A stretch of 64,000 nt of DNA from NCBI RefSeq assembly GCF_000026545.1, contig NC_011601.1; one strand, written 5' to 3'. The position numbers and the translations under genes were made by a program. Source of the DNA: Escherichia coli O127:H6 str. E2348/69 (GTDB lineage: Bacteria; Pseudomonadota; Gammaproteobacteria; Enterobacterales; Enterobacteriaceae). Shown here one piece after another: positions 51,211 through 53,237 of the stretch. Position 1 is the stretch's first letter. Each line of letters opens with the position of its first letter. The notes beneath the pieces were generated by a model. That model was not told the DNA's origin, did not search any database, and worked only from the letters and a program-made list of their open reading frames with translations.

Positions 51211-52799
51211 AACGAACGCCTGTCCTGATTGATGTGAACGGCGTTCCGCTTCGTGAGAGTCTCAGCTACAACGGGGGCGGTGCAGGATTTGGCGGGCAAA
51301 TGGCGGAGTGGTTGCCACCGGCGCAGAGTGCCGATGCGGCCCTGCTGCCCGCGTTGCGTCTGGGGAATGCCCGGGCAGATGATCTGGTGCGCAATAACGG
51401 AATAGCGGCCAATGCGGTGGCACTGCATAAGGATCACATTGTCGGGCATATGTTTCTTATCAGCTACCGTCCGAACTGGCGCTGGCTGGGGATGCGGGAG
51501 ACCGCAGCAAAAAGCTTTGTCGATGAGGTGGAGGCGGCCTGGTCGGAATACGCCGAAGGGATGTCTGGCGAGATCGACGTGGAAGGAAAACGCACGTTCA
51601 CGGAATTTATCCGTGAAGGTGTGGGCGTTCATGCGTTTAACGGCGAAATCTTTGTGCAGCCGGTCTGGGATACGGAAACCACGCAGTTATTCCGTACGCG
51701 TTTTAAAGCCGTGAGTCCGAAACGGGTGGACACGCCAGGACACGGTATGGGGAACCGTTTTCTGCGGGCCGGGGTGGAGGTCGATCGATATGGCCGTGCC
51801 GTTGCGTACCATATCTGTGAGGATGATTTTCCGTTCTCCGGGAGTGGACGATGGGAACGGATCCCGCGTGAACTTCCCACCGGGCGTCCGGCCATGCTGC
51901 ATATTTTCGAGCCGGTGGAGGACGGGCAGATCCGTGGGGCCAACCAGTTTTACAGCGTCATGGAACGGCTGAAGATGCTCGATTCCCTGCAGGCAACACA
52001 GCTTCAGTCGGCCATTGTGAAAGCCATGTATGCAGCGACGATTGAAAGTGACCTTGATACCGAAAAGGCCTTTGAATATATCGCCGGTGCGCCGCAGGGG
52101 CAGAAGGATAATCCGCTTATTAATATTCTGGAGAAGTTCTCCAGCTGGTATGACACGAATAACGTGACGCTGGGTGGTGTCAAAATTCCGCACCTTTTCC
52201 CCGGGGATGATCTGAAACTACAGACTGCGCAGGATTCAGACAATGGATTTTCGGCGCTTGAACAGGCGCTGCTGCGGTATATCGCCGCCGGTCTTGGCGT
52301 TTCCTACGAACAGTTGTCCCGTGATTACTCGAAGGTCAGTTATTCAAGTGCCAGGGCCTCTGCCAATGAGTCGTGGCGCTATTTTATGGGGCGGCGAAAA
52401 TTTATTGCGGCCCGGCTGGCCACGCAGATGTTTTCCTGCTGGCTGGAAGAGGCACTTCTTCGGGGGATTATCCGTCCGCCACGGGCGCGTTTTGATTTTT
52501 ATCAGGCGCGATCAGCCTGGTCACGGGCAGAGTGGATTGGTGCCGGAAGAATGGCCATTGACGGGCTCAAGGAGGTTCAGGAATCGGTGATGCGCATTGA
52601 GGCCGGACTGAGCACGTATGAGAAAGAGCTGGCGCTGATGGGCGAGGATTATCAGGACATTTTCCGCCAGCAGGTCAGGGAATCTGCAGAGCGGCAAAAA
52701 GCCGGACTCTCACGTCCGGTGTGGATAGCGCAGGCGTATCAGCAGCAGATAGCGGAGAGTCGCAGGCCGGAAGAGGAGACAACACCCCGTGAGACGTAA
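51207..52799 (+). CDS. B: Portal protein (gpB-like)
   Basis: 530 aa following W, lambda B-like size and position. Confidence 0.88.
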   Translation: MKRTPVLIDVNGVPLRESLSYNGGGAGFGGQMAEWLPPAQSADAALLPALRLGNARADDLVRNNGIAANAVALHKDHIVGHMFLISYRPNWRWLGMRETAAKSFVDEVEAAWSEYAEGMSGEIDVEGKRTFTEFIREGVGVHAFNGEIFVQPVWDTETTQLFRTRFKAVSPKRVDTPGHGMGNRFLRAGVEVDRYGRAVAYHICEDDFPFSGSGRWERIPRELPTGRPAMLHIFEPVEDGQIRGANQFYSVMERLKMLDSLQATQLQSAIVKAMYAATIESDLDTEKAFEYIAGAPQGQKDNPLINILEKFSSWYDTNNVTLGGVKIPHLFPGDDLKLQTAQDSDNGFSALEQALLRYIAAGLGVSYEQLSRDYSKVSYSSARASANESWRYFMGRRKFIAARLATQMFSCWLEEALLRGIIRPPRARFDFYQARSAWSRAEWIGAGRMAIDGLKEVQESVMRIEAGLSTYEKELALMGEDYQDIFRQQVRESAERQKAGLSRPVWIAQAYQQQIAESRRPEEETTPRET

Positions 52800-52993
52800 T
52801 CTTTCACACATTATTGCCGCAGCATTCAATGAACCGCTGCTTCTGGAGCCCGCCTATGCGCGGGTTTTCTTTTGCGCGCTCGGGCGCGAGATGGGGGCAG
52901 CAAGTCTTTCGGTACCACAGCAGCAGGTACAGCTTGATGCTCCCGGAATGCTGGCTGAAACGGACGAGTACATGGCCGGAGGTAAACGACCGG
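52789..52993 (+). pseudogene. C: gpC (head protease/scaffold) 5' fragment, truncated by internal deletion
   Basis: N-terminus ...AAAFNEPLLLEPAYARVFFCAL... matches lambda C; reading frame leaves C-like sense after about 65 codons at a junction near 52990. Confidence 0.75.
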
Positions 52994-52995
52994 CC

Positions 52996-53237
52996 CGTGA
53001 GCACAACCGGGCGATGTGCTGCTGTGCTGTTTTGGTTCATCGGTGCCGAATCATGCCGCCATTTACTGTGGTGACGGCGAGCTGCTGCACCATATTCCTG
53101 AACAACTGAGCAAACGAGAGAGGTATACCGACAAATGGCAGCGACGCACACACTCCCTCTGGCGTCACCGGGCATGGCACGCATCTGCCTTTACGGGGAT
53201 TTGCAACGATTTGGCCGCCGCATCGACCTTCGTGTGA
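52996..53237 (+). pseudogene. K: gpK (tail assembly) 3' fragment fused to gpC remnant
   Basis: AQPGDVLLCCFGSSVPNHAAIYCGDGELLHHIPEQLSKRERYTDKWQRRTHSLWRHRAW... equals the lambda K C-terminus as recalled, preceded by an in-frame TGA at the junction. Confidence 0.75.

Follow-up and report, generated by a model that had tools for sequence, protein, structure and literature searches.

In enteropathogenic Escherichia coli (EPEC) O127:H6 strain E2348/69, the late operon of a 40.8-kb lambda/21-like prophage, integrated between potC and potB in the RefSeq annotation, runs from the 5' end of the head gene C directly into the 3' end of the tail gene K, and we consider it very probable (about 0.93) that this junction arose by a single illegitimate, that is, homology-independent, deletion of ~10.2 kb within the one operon. 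The prophage lies in a stretch of 64,000 nucleotides (nt), hereafter the window, in which position x corresponds to position 2914717 - x + 1 of NZ_CP059840.2 (reverse strand, 100% identical). The intact relatives with which it was compared were the pot-site prophage of O111:H2 strain 12A (L004), phage PhiR57_1 (L003), the FORC_082 prophage (L005), and PP2, a second prophage of E2348/69.

In three-way alignments, with L004 as the left parent and L005 as the best right parent, the junction is flush between positions 52999 and 53000, with no base shared, inserted or lost. BLAST against the intact relatives ended the homology to C at 52999 and began the right-hand block at 53001 with PhiR57_1 and L004, and at exactly 53000 with the closest K genes (99.3% identity) of a collection of 5,426 complete E. 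coli genomes. Nucleotide 211 of C is joined to nucleotide 507 of K, and the interval absent here measures 10,200 bp in L004 and PP2 and 10,216 bp in PhiR57_1. A sequence-only reading of this DNA had proposed one internal deletion joining the C 5' end to the K 3' end, with endpoints at about 52990-52996; the three-way alignments bear out the deletion and move the endpoints to 52999/53000. On either side of the junction the genes keep the order and orientation that a simple internal deletion would leave.

In the intact relatives the 10.2-kb interval begins with the remainder of C, continues through D, E (major capsid), FI, FII, Z, U, V (tail tube), G, T, H (tape measure), M and L, and ends 169 codons into K. 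When we searched the 64-kb window by tblastn with all 22 L004 late proteins, E, FI, FII, Z, U, V, G, T, H, M and L were absent, and the same search recovered A, W, B, I, J, Lom and Stf at full length together with two stumps. A D-like remnant was considered at 25452-25664 (minus strand), where gpD gave a 37-bit gapped match, and was set aside as a chance match that runs over ydfA and upstream non-coding sequence with stops. Both the RefSeq annotation and tblastn place no capsid or tail-tube gene inside 19971-60771, as the sequence-only reading had held; its list of missing genes, Nu3 to L, likewise matches the genes between the breakpoints in the intact relatives, with Nu3 as a scaffold gene that is presumably nested in C and hence lost with the rest of it. 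A complete head set (C/Nu3, D, E, FI, FII) and tail-shaft set (Z-L) are thus lacking from what is a deleted derivative, and from its gene content the prophage is predicted to be defective and unable to build proheads or tail shafts by itself. For annotation, this means that the prophage of a reference EPEC strain should be recorded as defective in head and tail-shaft formation.

Two gene stumps joined out of frame

The C' stump (52789-52999, plus strand) comprises the first 211 of the 1506 nt (70 codons plus 1 nt) of the head protease/scaffold gene C and is 98.75-99% identical to intact C 5' ends. Its open reading frame (ORF) starts with a GTG at 52789, overlapping the end of B by 11 nt as in the intact relatives, and residues 1-71 are matched by the PHROG family phrog_53 ('head maturation protease'). 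Since Pfam places Peptidase_S49 at residues 146-293 of intact C and only residues 1-70 are left, the protease domain has been lost whole; with its catalytic domain absent the stump is a pseudogene, flagged by RefSeq as 'S49 family peptidase, missing C-terminus'.

The 'K stump (53000-53237, plus strand) is the last 238 of the 744 nt of the tail-tip assembly gene K, retained from nt 507 (79 codons plus 1 nt, the codons occupying 53001-53237). It is 99.3% identical to intact K 3' ends, its frame differs from that of C, and phrog_30 ('minor tail protein') matches it at profile positions 464-541 of 544. In intact K, Pfam locates Prok-JAB at residues 4-98 and NlpC/P60 at 111-224, so that the JAB domain and the first half of NlpC/P60 have gone; what is left, residues ~169-170 to 247, contains neither JAB nor a complete NlpC/P60 and has no start codon context. 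This stump too is a pseudogene, which RefSeq flags as 'NlpC/P60 family, missing N-terminus'.

Together the 211 nt of C and the 238 nt of K make up the 449-nt span 52789-53237, which is not a multiple of three. Translation from the GTG gives a C' ORF of 106 codons (52789-53109, plus strand), made up of 70 codons of C, one junction codon and 35 out-of-frame codons, followed by a TGA at 53107-53109. Another TGA, at 52998-53000, is made by the junction itself and closes the K frame, so the K stump is open only from 53001 and lacks a proper start. With the two frames out of register, the fusion yields no C-K hybrid protein. The sequence-only reading had described an ORF after B that starts like C, loses C sense after about 65 codons and then runs into the last ~80 codons of K. 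The C-like start holds, and the last 79 K codons do follow C directly, but by alignment C continues for 70 codons, and reading proceeds into K out of frame, through 35 nonsense codons to the stop at 53109. The 106-codon ORF at 52789-53109 should therefore not count as a gene in annotation. It is also matched by phrog_4759 ('unknown function', profile length 209) over residues 1-94 (E-value 6e-39), beyond the 70 C-derived residues; this family may consist of truncated gpC-like prophage ORFs.

Authenticity and distribution of the junction

A 601-nt query across the junction matched one record at 100% over its full length, NZ_CP059840.2, and with matches counted when they spanned at least 80% of the query the junction was present in only 1 of the 5,426 complete E. 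coli genomes, that of E2348/69. The exact ORF of 106 amino acids (aa) occurs on 8 contigs, which come from two NCBI assemblies of >4.9 Mb, one NCBI draft, four ENA assemblies and one Logan run, and the 201-nt junction core was identical in 7 of the 7 loci that were fetched. There was no exact match to the junction in IMG/VR or in JGI metagenome contigs, and the protein cluster of the C' ORF has 2 members.

Several lambdoid prophages with long near-identical stretches are present in E2348/69, and short-read contigs of this region blend PP2 and pot-site alleles, so a collapse between paralogous prophages during assembly would be one way to obtain a spurious junction. The exact junction is repeated, however, in several independent assemblies, and since C and K have no homology at the breakpoint, repeat collapse cannot create it. 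We regard the chance of an artefact as negligible, and the junction is a real lesion, essentially specific to the E2348/69 strain; the sequence-only reading, which had named an assembly artefact as one of the things that would refute it, is upheld on this point.

The short-read and metagenome contigs from ENA, Logan and the NCBI draft (L007-L012) differ from the window by 0.1-1.5%, in the flanks of the junction. An older, diverged deletion allele was rejected as the source of these differences because most of the variant bases are PP2 alleles (46/59, 26/27 and 23/24 in the three most divergent contigs, 7/12 in L011 and 1/5 in L012). We read the variants as the product of short-read assemblers mixing two paralogous prophages, or of gene conversion.

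Origin of the deletion

A single deletion would have removed the middle of the late operon, that is, the S49 domain of C, the genes from D to L, and JAB with half of NlpC/P60 of K, at one stroke. Transcripts of the late operon would be expected to pass from B across the scar to I, J, lom and stf, and I retains its own start and the sequence upstream of it, both within the K stump. As to cause, slippage between repeats or at microhomology was rejected since the three-way alignments show not a single base in common at the breakpoints; the hexamer ACCGGG occurs a few nucleotides downstream of both, out of register with the junction observed. A deletion mediated by an insertion sequence (IS) was likewise rejected, the junction being flush with no IS sequence or scar, and so was the involvement of Chi and RecBCD, there being no Chi site between L004 positions 14000 and 27500. 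The lack of microhomology, IS scar and nearby Chi speaks against slippage or an IS-mediated deletion and agrees with end-joining; the event may have been the end-joining of a double-strand break or an illegitimate event of the topoisomerase type.

No observation contradicts a deletion. The K/I segment right of the junction is nearer to FORC_082-type prophages (99.3%) than to the best left-side relatives (95%), and no direct ancestor is available. Since the best relatives differ on the two sides, illegitimate recombination between two lambdoid elements (two prophages, or an infecting phage) is a conceivable origin: the left side is 98.75% identical to L004 and the right side only 95.25%, the prophage with the 99.3% identical K/I segment is of a type with an HK97-type head, and the 100% identity of J-stf to PP2 shows that prophages have exchanged DNA in the E2348/69 genome. 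Lambdoid phages are mosaic anyway, however, and the closest relative would be expected to change at a module border even with no junction there; moreover, gene order and orientation are exactly as for an internal deletion, and the functional outcome would be the same. Because such mosaicism is normal, a two-parent origin is unnecessary, and we think it improbable beside the single internal deletion.

The FORC_082 prophage itself (NZ_CP026641.1, 2727.9-2729.1 kb) occupies the same pot site and has an HK97-type head module with lesions of its own, namely a frameshifted portal gene and a truncated prohead protease gene with gp10-like genes immediately behind it; its annotation lists no capsid gene.

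The missing genes in a sibling prophage

With chimeric queries, in which the junction was combined with 500 nt taken from either E or V, matching places in E2348/69 went up from 4 to 5 each time. The missing genes are in PP2 (ybhC/ybhB), whose lambda-type module is complete from Nu1 to stf, all of its genes being annotated as intact, and which in addition has an S24 repressor, cro and cII, genes for replication, Q, lysis genes, int and xis. PP2 lies at 3,391-3,442 kb of NZ_CP059840.2 (L017, L018) and carries espJ, a cif pseudogene and nleH; of its phage genes, rusA alone is interrupted by an internal stop. PP2 is possibly inducible and a potential helper. Since the missing genes are all present in PP2, the defect of the pot-site prophage holds in cis only. 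The statement of the sequence-only reading that this prophage cannot make heads or tail tubes, to be checked by a search of the rest of the genome, is accordingly right for the element and not for the cell.

Other places in the genome were rejected as sources of a lambda-type E: PP4 (torS/torT) has another head type, with a ClpP-capsid fusion, and its H and J are frameshifted; the head of PP6 (ompW) is also different and its tail is HK97-like; and the ttcA site holds only a scrap.

PP2 and the window are 96.0% identical over 49174-52999, 98.1% over 53001-59645 and 100% over 55251-59500. W is identical in the two prophages, the DNA identity of B and A is 96-98% (~97% for the portal gene B), and the W, Lom and fibre proteins have the same accessions in both. 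Within the almost identical J-lom-stf block (53800-59600 in the window, NZ_CP059840.2 3395.1-3401 kb in PP2) there are 0 mismatches over 55251-59500 and 16 in 54751-55250, and the A-W-B-C' block differs from PP2 by 2-4%. This distribution points to recent gene conversion or exchange between the two prophages, which are ~0.5 Mb apart. The pairing of the deleted prophage with an intact sibling module could serve the study of trans-complementation and of gene conversion between prophages.

Packaging, tail-tip and fibre genes

Left of the junction the prophage has the late-operon start of a lambda/21-type phage, with cosN followed by Nu1-A-W-B-C' with overlapping gene ends, collinear with phage 21, PhiR57_1 and L004 and, save for the type of Nu1, 93-100% identical to them in aa sequence. 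The cohesive-end sequence GGGCGGCGACCT (48392-48403, plus strand), which we take to be the cosN sequence of lambda, has its sole exact match in the window there, 169 nt upstream of the Nu1 start. The gene encoding Nu1, the small subunit of the terminase (48572-49120, plus strand; 'terminase small subunit' in RefSeq) is a full-length 182-aa ORF of the phage-21 type, equal in length to Nu1 of PhiR57_1 and with 97.7% DNA identity to phage 21 in the Nu1 region; it is only 34% identical in aa sequence to Nu1 of L004, and PP2 has the same Nu1 protein as L004 (WP_000235436.1). The gene for the large subunit A (49092-51020, plus strand; RefSeq) is full length at 642 aa, with 93% identity by tblastn over 642/642 residues of L004 A. 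Its 5' part is rich in mismatches to PP2 (68 in the 500 nt of 49174-49673), which then become fewer. Together with the change in Nu1 type, this drop is the apparent mark of a mosaic joint inside the terminase genes, at 48572-49700. The N-terminus of gpA is known to bind Nu1, which matches the place of the joint.

Next in order are the head-tail joining gene W (51004-51210, plus strand), 100% identical to W of L004 and with the same accession as that of PP2, and the portal gene B (51207-52799, plus strand), full length at 530 aa with 98.7% identity over 530/530 residues and a match to phrog_21 'portal protein' (E-value 7.6e-190). Right of the junction K is reduced to its last 79 codons, and the tail-tip and fibre block of I, J, lom, stf and tfa is complete. 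The tail assembly gene I (53135-53782, plus strand) starts inside the K stump and is full length (215 aa), with the same accession, WP_000741586.1, as I of the FORC_082 prophage and a match to phrog_32 (E-value 1e-83). The tail tip/host specificity gene J (53843-57256, plus strand) is full length at 1137 aa, with 98.2% identity over 1137/1137 residues and DNA nearly identical to J of PP2. Then follow, all on the plus strand, lom for an outer-membrane protein (57326-57925; Ail/Lom family in RefSeq, same accession in PP2 and PP4), the side tail fibre genes for N-terminal-domain and C-terminal-domain proteins (57990-59574; RefSeq, same accessions as in PP2), and the tail fibre assembly gene tfa (59926-60507; RefSeq annotation). 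The lengths of A, W, B, I, J, lom, both fibre genes and tfa are the same as in the intact relatives. The sequence-only reading had credited the remnant with its packaging, tail-tip, Lom and fibre genes and with intact I and J after the K remnant, and with cosN, Nu1, A, W, B, I, J, lom, stf and tfa all at full length this description stands.

Possible mobilization by a helper

With so much retained, the prophage might still be mobile through a helper, in that it would excise, cut its own cos with the phage-21-type terminase, and use heads and tails made by PP2. The 14-bp att repeat described below, int and xis annotated as intact, the kept cosN, and full-length Nu1, A, W, B, I, J and fibre genes are consistent with such a route. 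The element is 40,787 bp long, inside the packaging range of lambda (roughly 38-51 kb), and PP2 offers a full lambda-type set of head and tail genes, an S24 repressor, int/xis, Q and genes for lysis, with the identity in W, B and A given above. There is also an experimental precedent in O157 Sakai, where head-defective lambdoid prophages were trans-complemented, being packaged and in some cases transferred with the aid of other prophages (PMC2669165). Against this stand three IS insertions in the early and late regions and truncated early genes, the occurrence of the junction in 1 of 5,426 genomes with no IMG/VR or JGI match and so no sign of spread, and a scar that is an out-of-frame accident with no designed architecture. 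We consider mobility through PP2 unlikely.

A phage satellite would lack most structural genes, keep integration and packaging signals and have a compatible helper within reach; the prophage has the att repeat, int/xis, cosN and terminase, and PP2 may be such a helper in the same genome. P4-like and PICI-like satellites would also show an architecture conserved across many hosts and dedicated genes for helper exploitation; here we found one genome in 5,426, 0 matches in IMG/VR and JGI, a protein cluster of 2 and a pseudogene scar, and the lack of spread argues against the prophage being a selected satellite. An accidental satellite of PP2, with a phage-21-type cos/terminase specificity of its own and a W and portal that match those of PP2, packaged into PP2-made heads and tails and transferred after SOS induction together with Septu and the lom and fibre genes, and with its tail-tip genes kept intact by gene conversion from PP2, is a speculative scheme that we think slightly less probable again than helper-dependent mobility as such.

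Relation to known prophages

The closest parallel in kind is the set of defective prophages of O157:H7 Sakai (Sp3, Sp4, Sp6, Sp9, Sp14 and others; Asadulghani et al. 2009, PMC2669165), which are likewise lambda-like, reside in a polylysogenic attaching-and-effacing E. coli, have deletions, frameshifts and IS insertions in their morphogenesis genes, and share the cell with sibling prophages that have similar modules. They differ in that excision, packaging and transfer were measured in Sakai, and the present case lies in another strain, EPEC E2348/69, with a C'-'K junction seen only there. Deletions of this kind are routine in polylysogenic E. coli (PMC2669165). The lesion is an ordinary, already annotated kind of prophage decay in a known phage type and in a reference genome published in 2009; the deletion implies no new biology, and its interest is as a clean case of a flush, microhomology-free deletion in the late operon of a prophage.

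The intact pot-site prophages of O111:H2 12A and FDAARGOS_1059, together with PP2, have the late genes in the same order and, left and right of the junction alike, DNA that is 96-100% identical, and the 12A prophage has the same attachment site. Unlike the E2348/69 prophage, these relatives retain the 10.2 kb from C to K, 12A and PP2 have the other Nu1 type (34% aa identity), and the 12A prophage is without ISEc13 and IS200C between its esterase and holin genes. The K-12 cryptic prophages DLP12, Rac and Qin are similarly lambdoid remnants that have lost structural genes and kept scattered functional ones. They have lost nearly all late genes, whereas the E2348/69 prophage shows one clean deletion, its packaging, portal, tail-tip and fibre genes being full length otherwise.

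Borders and early region

The longest exact repeat common to both prophage borders is the 14-bp direct repeat CACCTTCTTATTCA, with one copy (attL core) at 19971-19984, just upstream of the potC start, and the second (attR core, again CACCTTCTTATTCA) at 60758-60771, inside the potB 3' end. By our own estimate such a repeat is expected by chance at ~7e-4, and the integrase gene adjoins the attL core. Because these repeats bound the prophage, its length is 40,787 bp, and the borders 19971/60771 agree with those read from the sequence beforehand (19970-60781). The insertion splits potC-potD from potA-potB by 40.8 kb, and the att core overlaps the potB 3' end (19962-19984, 60740-60771).

Besides int and xis, annotated as intact, the early region has genes of the Qin/Rac type (dicB, dicC-like, ydfA/B/C, hokD, rem), and several early genes are truncated, e.g., those for DUF1627 and ydfD. 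The annotation shows no type III effector in the pot-site prophage, unlike PP2, PP4 and PP6. A Septu-type anti-phage defence pair lies at 31122-33117 (plus strand), with PADLOC matches to PtuA (AAA ATPase, E-value 1.9e-165) and PtuB (HNH, E-value 1.1e-83). It is adjoined by a DUF5677 gene (29241-30083), to which PADLOC gave no match, and by a frameshifted, degenerate second integrase (~30189-30709), which suggests that the Septu pair and its neighbours came into the prophage as a small island.

The prophage contains three IS transposase genes: one of the IS481 family (33372-34460, minus strand), between the Septu genes and hokD, and those of ISEc13 (43265-44638, plus strand) and IS200C (44776-45234, plus strand), both between the SASA esterase and holin genes. 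Identical copies of the ISEc13 transposase are also present in PP6, near wrbA and in the ycj region.

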